Source: a virus (taxonomy: Duplodnaviria > Heunggongvirae > Uroviricota > Caudoviricetes). From it: 31,354 nt of DNA. The stretch lies in IMG/VR virus record IMGVR_UViG_2531839531_000012, one strand, 5' to 3'. The stretch's first letter is position 1. Each line of letters begins with the position of its first letter. Shown piece after piece: positions 1,529-29,689 of the stretch. The notes beneath the pieces were generated by a model that was not told the origin of the DNA, made no database searches, and saw nothing but the letters and a program-made list of their open reading frames with translations. Both the position numbers and the translations under genes were made by a program.

Positions 1529-2218
<690 letters not shown>

Positions 2219-2290
2219 TATGGCACCTGTGTTGTTCTGAGGTGAGCATATCACCTCTGTTCAGGTGGCCAAATTCAGTAAACCACTTCA

Positions 2291-3071
2291 ATTTAAACAT
2301 CCTTCCTTGACGTGTGGATAGTTCGTCATAGAGCCATTTAGGAATCGGAACAGTTCTATTCTTCTTACCTTTGGTTTTGGTGAAGGTCAGCTTGTAGGGT
2401 GAGAGTTGAGCGCGTGTAAGCCTCTCGGCTTCTCCCCATCGTGCACCGGTTGCCAAACATACCTTAACAATCATCGTAAGATTTTCTTTGCCATATTGTT
2501 CACAGGCTCGGAACAGCTCCGGGAGCTGAGACAAAGTTAGCCAGGACATTTCTTTCTCAGCTTCTTTGAATACGCGAATCCCGTCCAGTGGATTGGGTAA
2601 ACTCCACTCCCCTAATCGTCGCAGTTCATTGAACACTGCTTCGAGGTATTGCTGCTCGCGATTGACAGTTATAGGTTTGGCGATCCACTTCGCCGGGTCT
2701 TTGTGATAGCCGTTGTCTATTTCGCCACGTAATCGACGGTCACGGTAATGAGCCCAATCTTTAGCGGTAAGACGAGATGCAATAGGGTCGCCCAACCCGT
2801 TACATACGATTTGAAGCTTTGCCAACCGCGACTTACTGGCTACTAACGCCTGACCGTGCAAATTGTGCCAAAGCTGAATAATCTCACTTAAGCGTCGGCG
2901 GTCTTCTTTCTTGCCGAGCCACGGCTTATCTTCACTCTCGCTTTTGGTAAATGCTTCGAATGCCTCGGCCTCACCTTTGGTATTGAATTGACGACGTATA
3001 CGCCGCCCTTCCCGGCCATTTGGATAAAGCTCACATAACCATTTACCATTTTTTTGCTTACTTACTGTCAT
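2291..3071 (-). pseudogene. int: P2/186-type tyrosine integrase, C-terminally truncated by the IS insertion
   Basis: N-terminal 260 aa (MTVSKQKNGKWLCELYPNGREGRRIRRQF...CLATGARWGEAERL...NRTVPIPKWLYDELSTRQGRMFK) has the P2 Int pattern. The segment normally carrying the catalytic H-x-x-R and Tyr is replaced by IS sequence from 2290 leftward. Confidence 0.8.
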
Positions 3072-3094: not shown

Positions 3095-3433
3095 TTATTC
3101 ACACAACGCTATAGCTTCACTGAAAATCGGGCCAATATCAGCGCTTTCTAATGAATCGTTAGGGTCTTTTTTAAGAACTTCTTTTAAATCTCGCCCTTCC
3201 ATTTTTCCTGATTTGACGGCGTTTTTAGCCATACCGCTTAGGGGGTATCGTTCATCCGTATCAATGTCATAAACAAAAACGTAGTGACTATTTACACAAG
3301 ATACCTTTGCATGCTCAAAGGTCAGCGGCCATTTATCACCAAAAGATTTAATATCAATCTCTTTGAACTTTTCAGCGGCAAAGGTTGAGGAAGAGAGTGC
3401 AATACAGATTATTCCAAATAAAAACTTTTTCAT
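3095..3433 (-). CDS. Small secreted protein with N-terminal signal peptide (possibly DUF2511/YebY-like); cargo gene between int and repressor
   Basis: 112 aa beginning MKKFLFGIICIALSSSTFAAE (hydrophobic signal peptide); two Cys in the mature part. AT-rich relative to the phage backbone. Confidence 0.6.
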   Translation of the reverse strand: MKKFLFGIICIALSSSTFAAEKFKEIDIKSFGDKWPLTFEHAKVSCVNSHYVFVYDIDTDERYPLSGMAKNAVKSGKMEGRDLKEVLKKDPNDSLESADIGPIFSEAIALCE

Positions 3434-3442
3434 TACTGCTCC

Positions 3443-4306
3443 TTAAACATGCTTTTCCAAGGTAAAGATAACTGCACCTGATGGTGTGATATCAGAGAGA
3501 TTACATTCAAACTCAGCAGACTTATTTGATAGCCTGACCTTTCCACCTGGCATTCTGATTACGTCAAAAATATCGAGCGCACCATCAATGCCAATAAGCC
3601 AACGACCATTTCCTATCTTTGAGTTAGAACAATCAACAAGCCAAGATGCGCCAACTCCATCAATAAAGACCAACTCATCAATGTTTGCAGGAACCATTGA
3701 AAGGTCTGGAGTCCAACGCCCAATATCTTTTAACTCACCAGCTTCAAGACGACATTTTCTTACTGTTAAGGCGTTAAGTGATTCACCCTCTTTGCTGTCT
3801 CGCATTTGGCCTTTTCCTGTAGATAGCCACTCTAACGATACGCCAGTATCGAGTGCGCAGGTCACAACCACATCGCCAGGGAAGAAGTCACGCCTAACCC
3901 AAGTGCTAATAGTACCGGAAGAAATACCTAATAAATCACCAAGCTCTTTTTGCATCGTAAAACCATAAGCATCCAGAATCCTACGCAAAACGGTTTTACC
4001 GCCGTTCGTCATAATCTCGTCATAAAGCTCTTTGCCTTTTAACTTGCAACCGACTCGCCCATGATTTGCATTTGCAAGCTCACCACTTACAAGCCAATTA
4101 ATATCAGCGCCCGTGTCAAGACAACACCTAACTATGATGTTGCCAGGTATTGCATCGCGTTGAACCCAGCCGCTAACGCTATGTTTCGCGATTCCTAGCA
4201 GGTCAGCCAAATCCTTTTGCATCTTGACGCCATAGGCTGACATTAAGCGCTCTAATACGCCATTTGACGCACCTATGCGCCACTGAACATCAAGCTCAGA
4301 ACTCAT
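3443..4306 (-). CDS. CI-like immunity repressor with two tandem 186-CI-type HTH domains and a C-terminal oligomerisation-like domain
   Basis: Two homologous segments (LERLMSAYGVKMQKDLADLLGIAKHSVSGWVQRDAIPG... and LRRILDAYGFTMQKELGDLLGISSGTISTWVRRDFFPG...). Position and orientation are those of the immunity repressor, divergent from the early operon. Confidence 0.7.
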   Translation of the reverse strand: MSSELDVQWRIGASNGVLERLMSAYGVKMQKDLADLLGIAKHSVSGWVQRDAIPGNIIVRCCLDTGADINWLVSGELANANHGRVGCKLKGKELYDEIMTNGGKTVLRRILDAYGFTMQKELGDLLGISSGTISTWVRRDFFPGDVVVTCALDTGVSLEWLSTGKGQMRDSKEGESLNALTVRKCRLEAGELKDIGRWTPDLSMVPANIDELVFIDGVGASWLVDCSNSKIGNGRWLIGIDGALDIFDVIRMPGGKVRLSNKSAEFECNLSDITPSGAVIFTLEKHV

Positions 4307-6326: not shown

Positions 6327-8552
6327 ATGACAAAATATACTTTTGCTTTTCCGTGGAATGCCCCACGGTCGGCAATAGTCAGTCCATATCTTACCTACGA
6401 CCAACAGTATCGCCGCGACCGTATGTTCGCGGCTTTGCTGCATGCGAAAAAGGTGCTTTCTCTCCAGCCCGACTGCGTGCGGTTAGATGTTTATCGCACT
6501 GCTGCGGTGCTGGAGCAAAATCAGGGCAGTCAACGAACCAATGCCTTTTTAATCAGCTTCTGCAAAAAGGAATTGCCGCGTCTTGAACTGGTCGCAAAAA
6601 AATACGAATGCGCGGGTATCAACAGCAATGTATCAACCGCTGTTTTTGGAGGTCATTTTGATACCCAGCTTATGCAATATCTGGCGTCTCGCATGGTTAA
6701 TATGGTCGCCCGATATAACCGCCTCCCGGACATGTCGCGCGCTGATGTTGACCTGTTGGCCGCTGATATTGCTAATTTCATTCGTGGTGAACTTGCCAAC
6801 ATTGATGACAACGGATTCGGCGAGCTTAAAACGCTGTACACCTGGTATATCCGTGCTGGCTTTATTTCCCTCCAATTCAACGTTATCCCACCACATTGGG
6901 ATCGGGTTGCAAAAAAATATGTCGGCGCGGATGAAATCGCACCGGCTATCGCCAAGATGTTTAACGATGGGTGGTGGCGTGGTCGTTTGCGCCGTGTTGC
7001 GGCTACTTGGCGCGAACACCTGCAAATTGCAGTCGGCAACGTCAGCAAGAAAAAAAACACCTACGCGAGTAAAAACTGCGTGACTGACTGGCGTGAACAA
7101 AAGCGCCGCACTCGTGAATTTCTCAAAGGTCTGGATCTCGAAGACGAAGACGGCAACCGTATCAGCCTGATTGAAAAATATGATGGCTCAGTTGCTAACC
7201 CTGCCATTCGCCGCTGTGAGCTCATGACCCGCATTCGTGGGTTTGAAAACATCTGTAATGAGCTCGGTTATGTTGGTGAGTTTTACACTCTAACCGCGCC
7301 GTCAAAATATCACGCCACGACTAAAGCCGGGTACCGTAACAGCAAATGGAGCGGTGCTAGCCCGGCTGACACGCAAAACTATCTAACCGGTATCTGGGCG
7401 CGTATCCGTGCCAAACTGCATCGGGAAGATGTCCGTATTTTCGGTATTCGTGTCGCCGAACCCCATCACGACGGCACTCCACACTGGCACATACTGATGT
7501 TCATGCTGCCGGAAGATGTTGAATATGTTCGATCCATCGTCCGTAAATACGCATGGAAAGAAGACCGCCACGAACTGAAAAGCGATAAAGCCAAAAAAGC
7601 ACGTTTCCACGCCGAGGCCATTGACCCGGAGAAAGGCAGCGCAACCGGCTATGTTGCTAAATACATCTCAAAAAATATCGACGGTTATGCTCTCGATGGT
7701 GAAACCGATGATGAAAGTGGTGAACTGCTGAAAGAGACAGCCCCCGCCGTTTCAGCATGGGCAGCGCGCTGGCACATCCGTCAGTTTCAGTTTATCGGTG
7801 GTGCGCCGGTGACGGTCTACCGTGAGTTGCGTCGCCTCGCTGATACCGAAACCGCGCACGGCCTGAGCGTTGAGTTTGCCGCCGTCCATGATGCCGCCGA
7901 CGCAGGTGACTGGGCTGGTTATGTTAATGCGCAGGGTGGGCCGTTTGTCCGTCGCGATGATTTACAGGTGCGTACACTGTATGAACCCCGTACCGAGCTT
8001 AATCAGTACGGTGAGGAAACGGTATGTATTAAGGGGGTCTACGATTCCTCCATAGGTGCAGGAAGCCCGATTTTAACCAGGCTTACTCAGTGGAAGATTG
8101 TTCCGAAGCGTGCTGTTGATTTGGCCGTTGACCTTCAGGACGGCAAAGCCGTCCCTCGGAGTTCTGTCAATAACTGTACGGGAAGCGAAAGCGATCCACC
8201 GATACTGGATTTAACAAAACCACTGAGTCGGCGTGAAAGACGAGAATTGACCAACCGACTCAGGAAGCAAAAGCCAGCAGCACGGCGAAAATTCATCCAC
8301 GGAACGGATGAGCAAAACGCAGCTATAGCTAAAACTATCGACGAAATACATCTGACAACCGGCATTAATATCAGCCGGGGCGAAGCCCTGCACCTGATGG
8401 CCGGTGGTAAAAGTTGTTTTGATGGTAAATGGCTACGCGGAACGGCCAAAGGAGAAATATTTTCCGCAGCACCATCGCATGAGGCTAAAGCTCGGAAAAT
8501 CCTTAATCGTGTTGCGGCGATGGCTGAAGCATCAAAACCAATACATAAGTAA
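6327..8552 (+). CDS. A: Replication initiation protein gpA (rolling-circle nicking endonuclease)
   Basis: 741 aa. Contains HWHILMF and YVAKYISK (active-site Tyr region). GGAG-type RBS. Confidence 0.9.
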   Translation: MTKYTFAFPWNAPRSAIVSPYLTYDQQYRRDRMFAALLHAKKVLSLQPDCVRLDVYRTAAVLEQNQGSQRTNAFLISFCKKELPRLELVAKKYECAGINSNVSTAVFGGHFDTQLMQYLASRMVNMVARYNRLPDMSRADVDLLAADIANFIRGELANIDDNGFGELKTLYTWYIRAGFISLQFNVIPPHWDRVAKKYVGADEIAPAIAKMFNDGWWRGRLRRVAATWREHLQIAVGNVSKKKNTYASKNCVTDWREQKRRTREFLKGLDLEDEDGNRISLIEKYDGSVANPAIRRCELMTRIRGFENICNELGYVGEFYTLTAPSKYHATTKAGYRNSKWSGASPADTQNYLTGIWARIRAKLHREDVRIFGIRVAEPHHDGTPHWHILMFMLPEDVEYVRSIVRKYAWKEDRHELKSDKAKKARFHAEAIDPEKGSATGYVAKYISKNIDGYALDGETDDESGELLKETAPAVSAWAARWHIRQFQFIGGAPVTVYRELRRLADTETAHGLSVEFAAVHDAADAGDWAGYVNAQGGPFVRRDDLQVRTLYEPRTELNQYGEETVCIKGVYDSSIGAGSPILTRLTQWKIVPKRAVDLAVDLQDGKAVPRSSVNNCTGSESDPPILDLTKPLSRRERRELTNRLRKQKPAARRKFIHGTDEQNAAIAKTIDEIHLTTGINISRGEALHLMAGGKSCFDGKWLRGTAKGEIFSAAPSHEAKARKILNRVAAMAEASKPIHK

Positions 8553-8626
8553 TTCATATCCATATCATGCACATACAGCAATCGCTCTATTCGTTTTTTT
8601 TCTTCCCATCTTTTGCCAATACGTGC

Positions 8627-8646
8627 TACTGTATAAATATACAGTA
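8627..8646 (+). promoter_or_regulatory. LexA (SOS) box overlapping a putative promoter
   Basis: TACTGTATAAATATACAGTA matches the CTGT-N8-ACAG consensus at 19 of 20 positions. TTGCCA lies upstream at 8613-8618 and TATAAA/TATACA overlaps the box. Confidence 0.75.
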
Positions 8647-8665
8647 ACCCTATGGGAGGGATTTC

Positions 8666-8848
8666 ATGGTTGGCGAACATTTCAGCCGAACGCAGCAAAA
8701 GTGGGCTTGTGTGCAATTTATTGCCGAGGTATCTCTGATTGCAAACTGCAAGCCATCAGACTTAAAGCTCGCGCTCACTCTCATTGCAGACCTAGCAAAC
8801 AGCGAAAATAACGAAACCGAAGATGATAATTTTTATAAGGCTGATTAG
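8666..8848 (+). CDS. Small SOS-controlled protein; possible Tum-like antirepressor N-terminal module
   Basis: 60 aa. GGGAGGG RBS 5 nt upstream. 20 bp downstream of the LexA box. Ends at TAG in the same frame as the following DinI-like ORF. Confidence 0.5.
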   Translation: MVGEHFSRTQQKWACVQFIAEVSLIANCKPSDLKLALTLIADLANSENNETEDDNFYKAD

Positions 8849-8851
8849 ATT

Positions 8852-9085
8852 ATGAGAATCAATATCACGTTGGATAAAGAGCAAAAAATTAGTCAGGCAA
8901 CGTTGGATGCACTTGAGGCTGAGCTGTACCGCAATCTTCAACCTATTTACCCAAAGACTGCTATCCGCATTCGTAAGGGCTCAGCTAATGGCGTTGAGTT
9001 AAGCGGTTTGAAACTGGACGAAGATAAAAAACGAGTAATGGAAATCATGCAGCAGGTATGGGAGGACGATAGCTGGCTGCATTAA
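8852..9085 (+). CDS. DinI-family protein
   Basis: 77 aa (MRINITLDKEQKISQATLDALEAELYRNLQ...DEDKKRVMEIMQQVWEDDSWLH), collinear with recalled E. coli DinI (MRIEVT...DALAGEL...EDKQRISEILQETWE...W). Confidence 0.8.
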   Translation: MRINITLDKEQKISQATLDALEAELYRNLQPIYPKTAIRIRKGSANGVELSGLKLDEDKKRVMEIMQQVWEDDSWLH

Positions 9086-9088
9086 CAA

Positions 9089-9165
9089 ACGCCGTCGGTG
9101 CTGAATCTTGCTTTCAGTGCTGGCGGGGTTGAAACTGGCTCCGAGAGGTGTTAGTTCTACCTTTC
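9089..9165. repeat. Copy 1 of a ~75-bp imperfect direct repeat (immediately 3' of the DinI-like gene)
   Basis: AACGCCGTCGGTGCTGAATCTTGCTTTCAGTGCTGGCGGGGTTGAA...GTTAGT aligns with 9492-9568 at roughly 80% identity. Confidence 0.6.
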
Positions 9166-9278
9166 AAACTTTCTCGATGTTTTATTGGTTACACACCGGT
9201 GATTAATGGGACGTTACCTTAGAGGATTTTATAGTGGCGCTTTGACAGCACTGAATAAAATTCATTGAGGGCGATAAT

Positions 9279-9606: not shown

Positions 9607-9706
9607 CGTATGTCCAATCTAAAGAATGGGGGCTGACATCCCATCATCAGATTTGTGTTATTTTAGTGCTACTCATTCGTCATTAGACATTGTAAGGGCA
9701 ATGTAT

Positions 9707-10417
9707 ATGAAACCAAGCACACACTGCGTTTATTGCGGTGTTCTCATGAATAAGGTTGAAAATCACCCCCACTGCCGCTCAGTTGAACACATGATTCCGC
9801 AAGTTTCAGTCTCCATTCATAGAACCAACGGCGAAGGTGATTTCTATGTATGCAAAAAGTGCAATGGCGATAAAAGCCGAATTGACGAGGTGTTAGGTGT
9901 CATTTGCCGCATGGTAGGAGAGCACTCAACAGGCAGCTTTGATGCTGTTAATAAATTCCATAATGCGCTTAAAAGAAAAGACTCGAAATTTCGTGAAGCA
10001 TTCCAGAGTGTTAGGCATACAAAAAAAGGTGCGCAGATAACATTACCCCTAAATGGTAGGGAGATTTACCAATACGGCACCTGGTTAGCCAAGGGAGTAT
10101 TTTTCTTAGAGTATGGGCAATTGTTGACTGTAGATAAATTAATTTGGATTAATATCGTTCGCCACGATGAAGTAATGGCTATTAAAGAAATGTATAGAAA
10201 TGAACGTGGCTCTGAGGCATTTGATGATTTATCGAAGAATAGCAACATTCCAAATATTAATGGCGAGTCGTTTCTGATTGTTGGCCAGGATGCCCGAGAA
10301 ATGTTTATTTGCTTCAATAGAGTAATGATGTTTCATATAAAGATACTGGATAGAACGTTTATTAATCAAAAAAAATGCAAAAAAGCCCTACTCAATCTGG
10401 AAAAAAGGGTTCGATAA
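9707..10417 (+). CDS. HNH nuclease-domain protein with an uncharacterised ~160-aa C-terminal domain; cargo gene in the A-to-cos variable region
   Basis: 236 aa from the Met with a TAAGGG RBS. N-terminus has C-x2-C (CVYCG), EHMIPQ and CKKCNGDK, an HNH-type arrangement. Distinctly AT-rich. Terminator-like hairpins on both sides. Confidence 0.7.
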   Translation: MKPSTHCVYCGVLMNKVENHPHCRSVEHMIPQVSVSIHRTNGEGDFYVCKKCNGDKSRIDEVLGVICRMVGEHSTGSFDAVNKFHNALKRKDSKFREAFQSVRHTKKGAQITLPLNGREIYQYGTWLAKGVFFLEYGQLLTVDKLIWINIVRHDEVMAIKEMYRNERGSEAFDDLSKNSNIPNINGESFLIVGQDAREMFICFNRVMMFHIKILDRTFINQKKCKKALLNLEKRVR

Positions 10418-10581: not shown

Positions 10582-10807
10582 TGCGCGCCAGCGGTGGTGC
10601 GTATTATTAAAAAATACCGTCTGAGTGCGTTGTGGTGGAGCTAACGAGAGCGTTGCTAGATCGTGGGAGTTCTGATGCGAACGTGGGGCTATGTTTTGTC
10701 TGTGGAGCGATGAGAGAGGGTGAGATCAGTCGCACAATTCTACGGCTGTGCTTCCGTTAATATCTTCATCGGTATGTCATGTTCCCTACCAACAGCTGGA
10801 GGCTTTA

Positions 10808-11032
10808 ATGGATAACTATCACATTACAAAAGATGGCGATAAGTGGAAGCTTCAAAAGGAAGGAAATGAGCGGCCTAGCAAGACTGCAACAACTAAGGCT
10901 GAGATCATCAAAGATACTCAAGATTACATGTCCAATAAGACTGGCTCAGTAAAAATTCACAAAGAGGATGGGAAGTTTCAGGAAGAGCGCACTTACCCTC
11001 GTAAAGCTGATCCTAAAAAGTCCAAAGGTTAA
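10808..11032 (+). CDS. Small DUF2188-like protein; cargo gene between cos and the portal gene
   Basis: 74 aa from the internal Met (MDNYHITKDGDKWKLQKEGNERPSKT...KIHKEDGKFQEERTYPRK). GGAGG RBS. AT-rich. Confidence 0.55.
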   Translation: MDNYHITKDGDKWKLQKEGNERPSKTATTKAEIIKDTQDYMSNKTGSVKIHKEDGKFQEERTYPRKADPKKSKG

Positions 11033-27252: not shown

Positions 27253-29689
27253 TAACCTGAGACTTGAGGTTTTGCTGAAAGCGGTCGACCAGGCGACCCG
27301 ACCGCTTAAATCCATCCAGACCGCGAGTAAAACCCTGTCGGGTGATATTCGCGACACACAAAATGGGCTGCGTGACCTGAACGGGCAGGCCGCGAAAATC
27401 GACGGCTTTCGCAAAACCAGCGCTCAACTGGCCGTAACCGGCCAGTCGCTGGAGAAGGCAAAGCGCGAGGCTGAAGCGCTTGCCACGCAATTCAAAAATA
27501 CTGAGCGCCCGACGCGAGCGCAGGCACAGGTGCTCGAATCCGCAAAACGTGCCGCCGAGGGACTGCAGGTTAAATACAACAGCCTCACCGAGTCGGTTAA
27601 ACGCCAGCAACGCGAGCTGGGTGCCGCCGGTATCAATACCCGCAATCTGGCAAACGATGAGCGGGGGCTTAAAACACGCATCAGCGAGACGACGGCGCAG
27701 CTCAACCGGCAGCGTGAAGCATTGGCGAAGGTCAGCGCACAGCAGGCACACCTAAACCGAGTGAAAGAGCGATATAAATCGGGTAAGGAGCTTGCCGGTA
27801 ACATGGCTGCTGCAGGTGCTGCCGGGGTCGGTATTGCGACAGCGGGAACGATGGCCGGGGTTAAATTGCTGATGCCCGGTTATGACTTTGCGCAAAAAAA
27901 CTCCGAGCTGCAGGCTGTGCTCGGGGTCGATAAGCAGTCACCAGAAATGGAGGCGCTACGCAAACAGGCACGCCAGCTCGGCGATAACTCAGCGGCCTCA
28001 GCAGATGATGCCGCCGCCGCGCAGATTATCGTAGCCAAATCTGGCGCAGATAAAGACGGCATAGTGGCGCAAACACCGGCCATTCTGAATATGTCGCTGG
28101 CAAATAAAAAAACTATGGAGGAAAACGCCGCTTTGCTTATTGGCACCAAATCGGCATTCGGGCTCGCAGATGACAAGGCATCGCATATAGCAGATGTCAT
28201 ATCGATGGCGATAAATAAAACACAGGCATCATTTGAGGGATTAAACGACTCACTTACATATGTTGGTCCAGTTGCCAAAGATGCCGGTGTCAGCCTAGAA
28301 GAAACCGCCGCGATGCTGGGTGCGTTACACGATGCAAAAATCATAGGTTCGATGGCAGGAACCGGTAGCCGAGCTGTTTTAAGTCGACTGCAGGCTCCAA
28401 CTGGCAAAGCCTATGATGCCATTAAAGAGCTTGGCGTTAAGACGATGGATAAAAAAGGCAATACACGGCCAATCTTTACCATCCTGAAAGAAATACAAGC
28501 CAGCTTTAAGCGCAACAACCTCGGTACAGGTCAAAAAGCCGAGTATATGAAAACGATATTCGGCGAGGAAGCCAGTTCCGCTGCAAGTGTGTTAATGGCC
28601 GCAGCGGCCAGTGGAAAACTGGATGAACTGACCAAGATAATTAAGGATTCTGACGGTAAAACCGAGGAATTGGTTAAGGTCATGCAGGATAACTTAGGTG
28701 GCGACTTCAAAGAGTTTCAATCCGCTTATGAGGCCGTCGGTACCGACCTCTACGACCAGCAAGATAGCTCATTGCGTCAGCTAACTCAGACAGCAACACG
28801 GTATGTGCTAAAGCTTGATGACTGGATCAAAGACAACAAGGAGTTAGCGGAAAATATCGGCATCATCGCCGGTGGTGCGCTGGCGCTGATTGGTATCATC
28901 GGCGGCATTGGTCTCGTTGCGTGGCCGGTTGTCATGGGGATTAATGCCATTATCGCCGCTGCTGGCGTGCTGGGTACGGTCTTTACTGTCGTCGGTAGTG
29001 CCATTGCGACAGCGCTCGGTGCGATTACCTGGCCGATAGTGGCCGTCGGTGCGGCGATTGTGGCGGGGGCGCTACTCATCCGTAAATATTGGGAGCCCAT
29101 CAGCGCATTTTTCTCGGGAGTGATTGAGGGCATCATGAGTGCCTTTGCCCCAGTCGGGGAAATGTTCGCTCCACTGGCTCCCATTTTTGATGGTCTCGGC
29201 GAGAAACTGCGCGGCGTCTGGCAGTGGTTTAAAGACCTGATAGCACCGGTTAAGGCCACGCAGGAAACGCTTGATAGCTGCAAAAATGTCGGCGTCATAT
29301 TTGGTCAGGCACTGGCCTCTGCCTTGATGGCTCCGCTCAATGTTTTTAACAAGCTGCGCAGCGGTGTCGACTGGCTTCTCGAAAAGCTCGGCATCATCAA
29401 CAAAGAGTCGGACAGCCTCGACCAGACCGCCGCCAAAACCAATGCCGCCACACAGGGTAATTCCTACATCCCGGCAACCAGCACATATGGCGGCTATCAG
29501 GCTTATCAGCCAGTTACCGCACCGGCGGGGCGCTCTTACATTGACCAGAGCAAAAGCGAATACAACATCAATCTGCCGGGAGGTGTTGCGCCGGGGCATC
29601 AGCTTGACAGACAACTACGCGACACGCTCGAACAGATTGAGCGCGATAAACGCGCCCGCCAGCGTGCCAACATGACCCACGACTATTGA
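27245..29689 (+). CDS. T: Tail tape measure protein gpT
   Basis: 814 aa. Coiled-coil N-terminal region and a hydrophobic Gly/Ala-rich segment. Confidence 0.85.
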   Translation: MSNNLRLEVLLKAVDQATRPLKSIQTASKTLSGDIRDTQNGLRDLNGQAAKIDGFRKTSAQLAVTGQSLEKAKREAEALATQFKNTERPTRAQAQVLESAKRAAEGLQVKYNSLTESVKRQQRELGAAGINTRNLANDERGLKTRISETTAQLNRQREALAKVSAQQAHLNRVKERYKSGKELAGNMAAAGAAGVGIATAGTMAGVKLLMPGYDFAQKNSELQAVLGVDKQSPEMEALRKQARQLGDNSAASADDAAAAQIIVAKSGADKDGIVAQTPAILNMSLANKKTMEENAALLIGTKSAFGLADDKASHIADVISMAINKTQASFEGLNDSLTYVGPVAKDAGVSLEETAAMLGALHDAKIIGSMAGTGSRAVLSRLQAPTGKAYDAIKELGVKTMDKKGNTRPIFTILKEIQASFKRNNLGTGQKAEYMKTIFGEEASSAASVLMAAAASGKLDELTKIIKDSDGKTEELVKVMQDNLGGDFKEFQSAYEAVGTDLYDQQDSSLRQLTQTATRYVLKLDDWIKDNKELAENIGIIAGGALALIGIIGGIGLVAWPVVMGINAIIAAAGVLGTVFTVVGSAIATALGAITWPIVAVGAAIVAGALLIRKYWEPISAFFSGVIEGIMSAFAPVGEMFAPLAPIFDGLGEKLRGVWQWFKDLIAPVKATQETLDSCKNVGVIFGQALASALMAPLNVFNKLRSGVDWLLEKLGIINKESDSLDQTAAKTNAATQGNSYIPATSTYGGYQAYQPVTAPAGRSYIDQSKSEYNINLPGGVAPGHQLDRQLRDTLEQIERDKRARQRANMTHDY

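Follow-up and report, generated by a model that had tools for sequence, protein, structure and literature searches.

The analysed window, a stretch of 31,354 nucleotides, represents as a whole a P2-like prophage. It harbors an integrase gene, cI, a cII-like gene, fil, a DksA-like gene and gene A, followed by the tum locus described here. Downstream of this locus come the portal and terminase genes, encoded on the other strand, and then genes for head and tail. The best match among complete genomes is the chromosome of Escherichia coli strain Ecol_545 with an identity of 99.9%. The tum locus is carried by 81 of 5426 complete E. coli genomes. In the RefSeq annotation of Ecol_545 (PGAP), the same open reading frames (ORF) appear as two genes, namely a "hypothetical protein" and a "DinI family protein". 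The integrase of this prophage copy is truncated by mobile DNA, and hence derepression of this copy may give no phage. The following genes and features are relevant for the locus.

3443 to 4306, minus strand: cI, immunity repressor of 286 aa and presumed target of TumA (PF07022 twice and PF16452)
6327 to 8552, plus strand: gene A, P2/186 gpA family, replication (Pfam Phage_GPA, E-value 1e-130; gene order as in PSP3 and 186)
8603 to 8632, plus strand: predicted promoter, homologous by position to 186 p95 (-35 TTCCCA at 8603-8608, spacer of 18 nt, -10 TACTGT at 8627-8632)
8627 to 8646, plus strand: predicted LexA operator (SOS box) TACTGTATAAATATACAGTA, agreeing with the consensus at 19 of 20 positions and overlapping the -10 hexamer
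8654 to 8660, plus strand: GGGAGGG as Shine-Dalgarno sequence for tumA, at a distance of 5 nt from the ATG, as read from the sequence
8666 to 8848, plus strand: tumA, 60 aa, presumed CI antirepressor, TAG stop at 8846-8848 (homology to PSP3 TumA and to the N-terminus of 186 Tum)
8852 to 9085, plus strand: tumB, 77 aa, DinI family (Pfam DinI, structure 1GHH, 98.7% identity to PSP3 TumB)
9088 to 9130, plus strand: hairpin after tumB without a U tract, core stem of 14 bp at 9092-9126 (RNA fold)

An earlier sequence-only reading had described a 60-aa ORF, its TAG stop, one ATT codon and the ATG of a 77-aa ORF in the same frame, and all of these coordinates hold. The ATT at 8849-8851 is the single codon between the TAG and the ATG at 8852. 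A placement of two ORFs in the same frame is expected in one of three cases by chance alone. Due to the TAG, the single fused Tum frame of phage 186 sensu stricto is absent here. The start of tumA at 8666 comes directly after the end of gpA at 8552, and the order is alike in PSP3 and 186. Because gene A is located directly 5′ of tumA, the map position equals that of 186 tum and PSP3 tumAB.

Relatives of the locus were taken from 120 listed of 208 protein clusters, from 25 bacterial loci with one genome per species, and from 80 viral contigs. About 107 related loci, made up of 27 genome and phage loci and the 80 viral contigs, were available for comparison at the DNA level.

Predicted LexA operator and promoter

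The sequence-only reading had proposed a near-consensus LexA box upstream of tumA that overlaps a promoter. The box is well supported, as TACTGTATAAATATACAGTA shows one mismatch in 20 positions to the palindromic LexA consensus, is unique in the window with up to three mismatches allowed, and found no match of any kind in 100 shuffled sequences. The core motif CTGT-N8-ACAG likewise occurs once in the window, at this box, whose counterpart in the alignment with 186 is the annotated LexA site. In all 27 genome and phage loci, including 186, the motif is present 37-43 nt 5′ of the tumA start with diverged flanks, and it is found at most 70 nt 5′ of tumA in 78 of 79 viral contigs. Overall, the box is kept in 105 of 106 related loci. 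Its conservation amid diverging flanks is strong comparative evidence for a function as operator.

A scan with the strict sigma-70 consensus made no promoter call in front of tumA. We positioned the promoter through its homology to 186 p95, for which the record NC_001317 gives the -35 hexamer TTCACA, a spacer of 18 nt and the -10 hexamer TACTGT, the latter coinciding with the 5′ half of the LexA box. The alignment points to TTCCCA (8603-8608) as the -35 hexamer instead of TTGCCA (8613-8618), which had been chosen from the sequence alone. The proposed overlap of operator and promoter core persists with either choice.

The CI repressor as presumed target

The CI protein of the prophage contains Phage_CI_repr (PF07022, a 186-type helix-turn-helix domain, in two stretches) and Phage_CI_C (PF16452), and the Pfam search detected no S24 peptidase domain in it. 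A lambda-like self-cleaving CI, which was considered due to a broad match to PHROG 4, was rejected on the basis of the 186-type domains and the lack of the peptidase domain. Since this CI has no self-cleavage domain, an antirepressor would be needed for SOS induction, and induction by an antirepressor fits the resident 186-type repressor. Passages in Lemire et al. 2011 (PMC3121763), citing Shearwin 1998, describe 186 Tum as a protein that binds to CI, its cognate repressor, and prevents the latter from binding its operators.

Properties of TumA

TumA is identical to TumA of PSP3 in 59 of 60 residues (98.3%) and is a member of PHROG 1993, a family of unknown function. Pfam provides no family for it, and a search of solved structures by sequence gave no match, the best E-value of 1.6 representing noise. 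The protein is homologous to residues 14-52 of 186 Tum, where VQFIAEVSLIANCKPSDLKLALTLIADLA aligns to VEMIARLTAEGTCQERDREIALNLIAEIA. In a Smith-Waterman comparison with the N-terminus of the 186 protein, TumA scores 60, compared to 21.8 +/- 4.0 for shuffled sequences (z about 9.5), and none of 5000 shuffles reached this score. Alignment of a 31-member TumA profile with 186 Tum by hhalign yielded an E-value of 3.7e-5 and a probability of 71%. Furthermore, the concatenation of the 60 aa and 77 aa is colinear with the 146-aa Tum of 186 and shows 37% identity over 134 aa (E-value 3e-32), which confirms the earlier assignment as a tum-like SOS locus. Plain BLASTP with the 60 aa alone produced no alignment to 186 Tum. 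We attribute this to the sensitivity limit of the method, since the concatenated alignment, hhalign and the Smith-Waterman shuffles all find the similarity.

An AlphaFold model, used for secondary structure only, suggests a two-helix hairpin with helices at residues 3-25 and 30-53 at moderate confidence (pLDDT 68, pTM 0.41). The C-terminal tail is acidic and variable. The Shine-Dalgarno sequence of tumA is kept in related loci as GGGAGGG, GGAGGG or GAGAGG. For codons 1-47, a median dN/dS of 0.04 was obtained at a dS of about 1.1, which points to strong purifying selection on tumA.

The role of TumA deserves consideration with respect to its target. It is unlikely that the SOS-controlled TumA is not an antirepressor of its own CI and acts instead on the repressor of another prophage in trans or has an unrelated role in the SOS response. 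Such a role would be in line with the conservation of TumA at 98-100% identity in phages that share only 70-84% CI identity with this prophage; a near-constant TumA alongside divergent CI proteins means that the pairing of the two is not one-to-one. Trans-acting antirepressors are also documented in Salmonella, according to passages in Lemire et al. 2011 (PMC3121763), and for the prophage studied here we infer the binding of TumA to CI. What speaks against a role apart from CI is the homology to the N-terminus of 186 Tum, a protein with the CI-binding activity mentioned above, together with the conserved place of tumA next to gene A in phages with a 186-type CI without cleavage domain and the annotation "UV induction of prophage" in PSP3.

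Properties of TumB

The 77-aa ORF had been called DinI-like from the sequence alone, and this is fully supported. TumB matches the Pfam family DinI (PF06183) with 84.3 bits at a cut-off of 24.2 (E-value 7e-24), residues 15-76 covering positions 2-63 of the 63 in the profile, and the structure of E. coli DinI (1GHH) with an E-value of 2.6e-9. The acidic C-terminal helix of DinI appears to be present in TumB, as judged from the alignment of EIMQQVWEDDSW to EILQETWESADDW of 1GHH. In E. coli DinI, this helix is the part which interacts with RecA and mimics DNA.

An internal GTG in 186 tum, at record position 29292, is the exact counterpart of the tumB ATG in the alignment. In 186, this GTG is preceded by the strong Shine-Dalgarno sequence AAGGAGGG. 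The Shine-Dalgarno sequence of tumB is weak and consists of AAGG at 8837-8840, 11 nt upstream of the start.

Comparison with known systems

Over 738 nt around the locus, the DNA is 93.7-94.1% identical to the Salmonella phages PSP3, SEN1, SW9 and SI22. The closest described system is tumA-tumB of PSP3 (AAN08399 and AAN08400). It shares the location after gene A, an identical LexA box, the identical TAG-ATT-ATG junction TAGATTATG and the same type of CI, with a DNA identity of 93.7% over the 738 nt and the protein identities already given. The differences comprise residue 55 of TumA, which is I in PSP3 and N here, a CI with only 83.6% identity, and other cargo genes downstream of gp37; in addition, the prophage studied here resides in E. 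coli and has a disrupted integrase. In the PSP3 record AY135486, tumA is annotated as "similar to 5' end 186 tum; UV induction of prophage" and tumB as "similar to dinI and 3' end of 186 tum". Passages in Lemire et al. 2011 (PMC3121763), citing Bunny, Liu and Roth 2002, state that tum is split by a stop codon in PSP3 and Fels-2 and that the upstream gene is the antirepressor; for PSP3, the activity is given there as a personal communication of G. E. Christie. The antirepressor activity of TumA is thus presumed from the literature, that is, from the PSP3 note and the communication relayed by Lemire et al. 2011. Searching the literature for the whole words TumA, TumB or PSP3 returned unrelated papers only. 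The split arrangement is already known: it is recorded in the PSP3 GenBank submission and discussed by Bunny et al. 2002 and, later, by Lemire et al. 2011 (PMC3121763).

Phage 186 itself has a LexA-repressed promoter with a nearly identical core, a tum gene at the position after gene A, an N-terminal antirepressor module and a C-terminal DinI-like module. Its DinI-like part is also made separately from the internal GTG, as a 76-aa product annotated in the record as "truncated Tum - modulates SOS induction". According to reports by Brumby et al. 1996 and Shearwin et al. 1998, its SOS operon has the order p95-tum-orf97. In contrast to the locus found here, with a stop between the modules, 186 Tum is one polypeptide of 146 aa with a linker longer by about 12 residues and a strong internal AAGGAGG, and it is followed by orf97, where this prophage has other genes. 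Because 186 makes the DinI-like module separately too, the main difference is whether the upstream frame runs on into the DinI part.

Fused Tum proteins were found in 28 phage records only, all at least 92% identical to 186 Tum, and in Erwinia phage ENT90 the 186-type N-terminal module exists on its own. As fusion is restricted to the tight 186 clade and stand-alone tumA is the commonest state (see below), the fusion rather than the split seems to be derived. It is therefore more likely, judging from this distribution, that the fused 186 Tum with its retained internal start is a rare, derived state, which agrees with a suggestion in the consulted passages of Lemire et al. 2011 (PMC3121763).

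In Fels-2 of Salmonella LT2 (STM2728 and STM2726.1), a protein of about 60 aa and then a DinI-family gene are likewise encoded downstream of gpA, with one or more CTGT-N8-ACAG boxes upstream in the sequence. When the translations are compared by eye, the DinI protein closely resembles TumB. The protein encoded upstream shows only weak similarity to TumA (Smith-Waterman p about 0.02) and is clearly related to the 186 N-terminus (score 57, reached by none of 5000 shuffles). Unlike the locus found here, it has a TGA stop and a spacer of 10 nt with its own GAGGTG, and the DinI gene is out of frame.

More distant parallels are the operons of Gifsy-1, -2 and -3 (gfoA, gftA and gfhA), for which passages in Lemire et al. 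2011 (PMC3121763) describe a LexA-controlled small antirepressor, a DinI paralogue and a repressor that is not cleaved in induction. They differ in the reversed order with dinI first and in belonging to lambdoid phages with another repressor family, and by our own assessment their antirepressors are apparently unrelated in sequence to TumA. The same source, as far as these passages go, reports that non-polar dinI deletions in Gifsy prophages are without measurable effect on induction; the contribution of TumB may accordingly be subtle.

Conservation of the stop codon and nature of the gene boundary

In all 27 genome and phage loci the tumA stop is located at the same position after an ORF of 59-62 codons, represented by 17 TAG, 7 TAA and 3 TGA codons, and a stop after tumA is also present in all 80 viral contigs, with a sense codon in none. 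Across the about 107 loci and the 120 listed clusters, the frame is closed by TAG, TAA or TGA after 59-66 codons. The stop is common to relatives across at least 15 enterobacterial genera. A sense codon at 8846-8848, for which the sequence-only reading had proposed a comparison with related prophages, was absent from the 107 loci, including close relatives with more than 90% DNA identity.

The same picture emerges at the protein level. The 120 listed TumA cluster representatives (of 208) have lengths of 51-93 aa, and none of them is fused to DinI. Among them, nine of 74-93 aa are spurious extensions from upstream starts which translate the promoter and LexA box, and four of 62-66 aa have longer C-terminal tails. 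A profile search in 1.84 billion representatives yielded 37 matches, mostly stand-alone proteins of 46-87 aa. Of the four longer matches, the two inspected, of 109 and 137 aa, have C-terminal tails devoid of DinI-like sequence; the other two are multi-stretch proteins of 773 and 931 aa.

An inactivating amber mutation had been proposed as one explanation of the split. That such a lesion has recently disrupted a once fused, 186-like tum gene and left the prophage decaying or unable to be induced is hardly credible. Admittedly, an in-frame stop resembles a nonsense change of a single base, and this prophage copy is decaying elsewhere, as seen from its truncated integrase. The stop is ancient, however, being common to all relatives, it is realized by three different codons, and tumA shows a dN/dS of 0.04 at a dS of about 1.1. 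Moreover, tumB has its own ATG at the site of the 186 internal start, PSP3 carries the same TAG and its tumA is annotated with a role in induction, and the fused form, limited to the 186 clade, is itself suggested to be the derived state.

The DinI partner of tumA is frequently missing. Of the 80 viral contigs, 33 contain tumA and no tumB within 120 nt, and tblastn detected no DinI homologue in the fetched flanks (usually 2.5 kb on each side) in 17 of the 25 species genomes. With near-identical loci excluded, tumA is found without an adjoining DinI gene in over half of the related loci. Where a tumB follows, the junction varies between lineages, as seen in the following examples.

Phytobacter (L023): TAG stop, gap of 2 nt to the tumB ATG, out of frame
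Winslowiella (L027): TAA stop, gap of 17 nt, spacer with GAGG, out of frame
Fels-2: TGA stop, gap of 10 nt, spacer with GAGGTG, out of frame
Viral contig (L088): TAG stop, gap of 94 nt, out of frame
Atlantibacter (L015): TAA stop, gap of 3 nt (GCG), in frame

In the PSP3 clade, the placement of tumB in the frame of tumA is inherited and the junction fixed. The pattern TAG-NNN-ATG occurs in 46 of the 47 viral contigs with an adjoining tumB, even where identity to the TumB found here is as low as 40-47%, and in many E. coli genomes the similarity to the window ends about 40 nt into tumB. The fixed junction together with a similarity ending inside tumB indicates that tumB alleles have been swapped as cassettes at this conserved junction.

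Readthrough of the stop was the other explanation given for the split. A 139-aa TumA-TumB fusion like 186 Tum, made by programmed or leaky UAG readthrough in addition to the two single proteins and serving as the active antirepressor or as a functionally distinct minor product, is very unlikely. This idea draws on the two ORFs being in frame with one sense codon from stop to ATG, on the existence of such a fusion in 186, with which the concatenation aligns across the stop, and on the TAG-NNN-ATG pattern of the PSP3 clade, retained there even with diverged tumB alleles. Furthermore, UAG is the stop codon most easily suppressed in E. coli. Arrangements that block a fusion are common, however, as in Fels-2, Phytobacter, Winslowiella and the viral contig listed above, and the in-frame arrangement of Atlantibacter has a TAA. 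TAG is just as frequent in tumA loci without tumB, ending the gene in 17 of the 33 viral contigs concerned, which shows the choice of stop codon to be independent of a downstream DinI gene. Since tumA alone is the commonest state, the 60-aa protein would be sufficient as a unit. The presence of coding sequence directly 3′ of the junction also counts against readthrough. Among TumA-type relatives, an in-frame downstream ORF and the identity of the stop are not conserved across diverged members, as would be expected of recoding. Altogether, the comparative data argue strongly against conserved readthrough. A trace of UAG readthrough may nevertheless occur in the PSP3 clade with its in-frame junction.

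A narrower variant would be that the PSP3 clade keeps its in-frame TAG-NNN-ATG for a minor level of UAG readthrough, giving a 139-aa fusion with properties that neither part has. We consider this very improbable. If true, the fusion could tether the antirepressor to RecA filaments or alter its stability, and the stop would act as a rheostat between two induction behaviours.

By the evidence of the relatives, the TAG is a true terminator and represents an old, selected gene boundary. Thus, of the possibilities raised by the sequence-only reading, the two-gene antirepressor/DinI module is favoured by the conserved stop, the purifying selection on tumA and the frequent occurrence of tumA without DinI. 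Among the observations which that reading had named as speaking against its own interpretation were separate ORFs and the same stop being conserved among relatives, which was indeed found, and a lack of similarity between the 60-aa ORF and the Tum N-terminus, where similarity was detected instead.

Proposed function of the operon

Taken together, the locus is very probably a two-gene SOS operon of a PSP3-like prophage (genus Eganvirus, 186 group) in E. coli. In the uninduced lysogen, LexA would be bound at 8627-8646 and cover the -10 region of the p95-like promoter, and because the operator covers this region, the operon would be off. Upon DNA damage, active RecA would cause self-cleavage of LexA and the promoter would fire. 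TumA, probably a two-helix hairpin, may then bind the 186-type CI and prevent it from binding its operators, and with CI off the operators lytic transcription would start. TumB would be translated from its own ATG, 3 nt past the tumA stop, probably by termination-reinitiation coupling aided by the weak AAGG upstream. As a DinI paralogue, it may modulate the activity of RecA filaments and in this way how strong the SOS signal is or how long it lasts.

The two-gene operon accounts for the sensing of DNA damage by this E. coli prophage, which would proceed through a LexA-controlled antirepressor trigger as in 186. The mechanistic understanding of such triggers is left unchanged by our survey, which adds the modest points that tumA, with about 60 aa, is widespread in the Enterobacteriaceae as a stand-alone gene and that its DinI partner is optional and apparently exchanged as a cassette at a fixed junction. 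As tumA is a "hypothetical protein" in PGAP and has no Pfam family, the survey may help its annotation.

Region downstream of tumB

A terminator scan made no call after tumB. The RNA fold of positions 9078-9200 has a free energy of -40.3 kcal/mol (z -2.86), and none of 200 shuffled sequences folded equally well. The hairpin at 9088-9130 may be an RNA-stabilising or partial termination element, and it occupies the position of the partial terminator t95a in phage 186.

Stop codon usage and the region 3′ of tumB

TAG terminates tumA at 17 of the 27 genome loci and in 64 of the 80 viral contigs, loci which are not necessarily independent of each other. Among these contigs are 17 of the 33 that lack a downstream tumB. 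Enterobacteria normally use TAG least of the three stop codons, and its frequency at the end of tumA is probably explained by shared descent.

A very stable hairpin was found directly 3′ of the tumB stop codon:

9088-9130, plus strand, hairpin with a 14-bp core stem

The RNA from 9078 to 9200 folds with -40.3 kcal/mol, and an equally good fold was obtained in none of 200 shuffles. The hairpin is not followed by a U tract, and a simple terminator scan made no call at this position.

Probable exchange of tumB alleles

In five E. coli genome hits (H90-H94) and three related tumA loci (L004, L033 and L034), the similarity to the window stops about 40 nt inside tumB. All of them share an identical TAGATTATG junction, followed by a TumB allele with just 40-47% identity. 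This suggests that DinI paralogues are exchanged as cassettes, with recombination taking place in the conserved initial codons (MRINITLDKEQK).

Open reading frames downstream of tumB with matches to defence models

Two open reading frames in this region match PADLOC models:

9626-10417, plus strand, 263-aa ORF of unassigned function (PHROG 31193, E 9e-172)
10748-11032, plus strand, 94-aa ORF (match to PDC-S16, a candidate defence family of PADLOC, E 1.4e-13; PHROG 3220)

The 263-aa ORF is placed between tumB and the portal gene, the position occupied in P2 by old and tin, and is therefore a candidate anti-phage cargo gene. Its N-terminal region is weakly HNH-nuclease-like, with residues 18-95 matching the PADLOC models of PtuB (Septu) at E values of 8e-5 to 8e-3; a partner ATPase was not found nearby. 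The homologue of the 94-aa ORF in E. coli Ecol_545 is a DUF2188 protein according to RefSeq.

Immunity region and integrase

The left part of the window harbors the following elements:

3443-4306, minus strand, CI repressor (286 aa)
3095-3433, minus strand, DUF2511 gene between int and cI
1-2303 and 2187-3071, minus strand, truncated integrase and adjoining mobile DNA

CI carries the 186-type CI helix-turn-helix domain twice in tandem (two stretches matching Pfam PF07022), followed by the CI C-terminal domain. In contrast to 186 CI, which has 192 aa and a single such domain, this longer, duplicated form is common to PSP3 and the window. The DUF2511 gene, kept in PSP3 as gp28 and frameshifted in Ecol_545 according to annotation, is probably a lysogenic-conversion (moron) gene.

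The integrase is truncated, as judged from the alignment of its ORF with PSP3 Int (349 aa): an identity of 90% extends no further than residue 260, and the sequences diverge beyond it. From position 1 to about 2300, the window has 99.5-99.8% DNA identity to a widespread mobile segment annotated with an IS3-like ISEc52 transposase and the group II intron gene ltrA. The present prophage copy is probably unable to excise, so that SOS derepression may here kill the cell without phage release.
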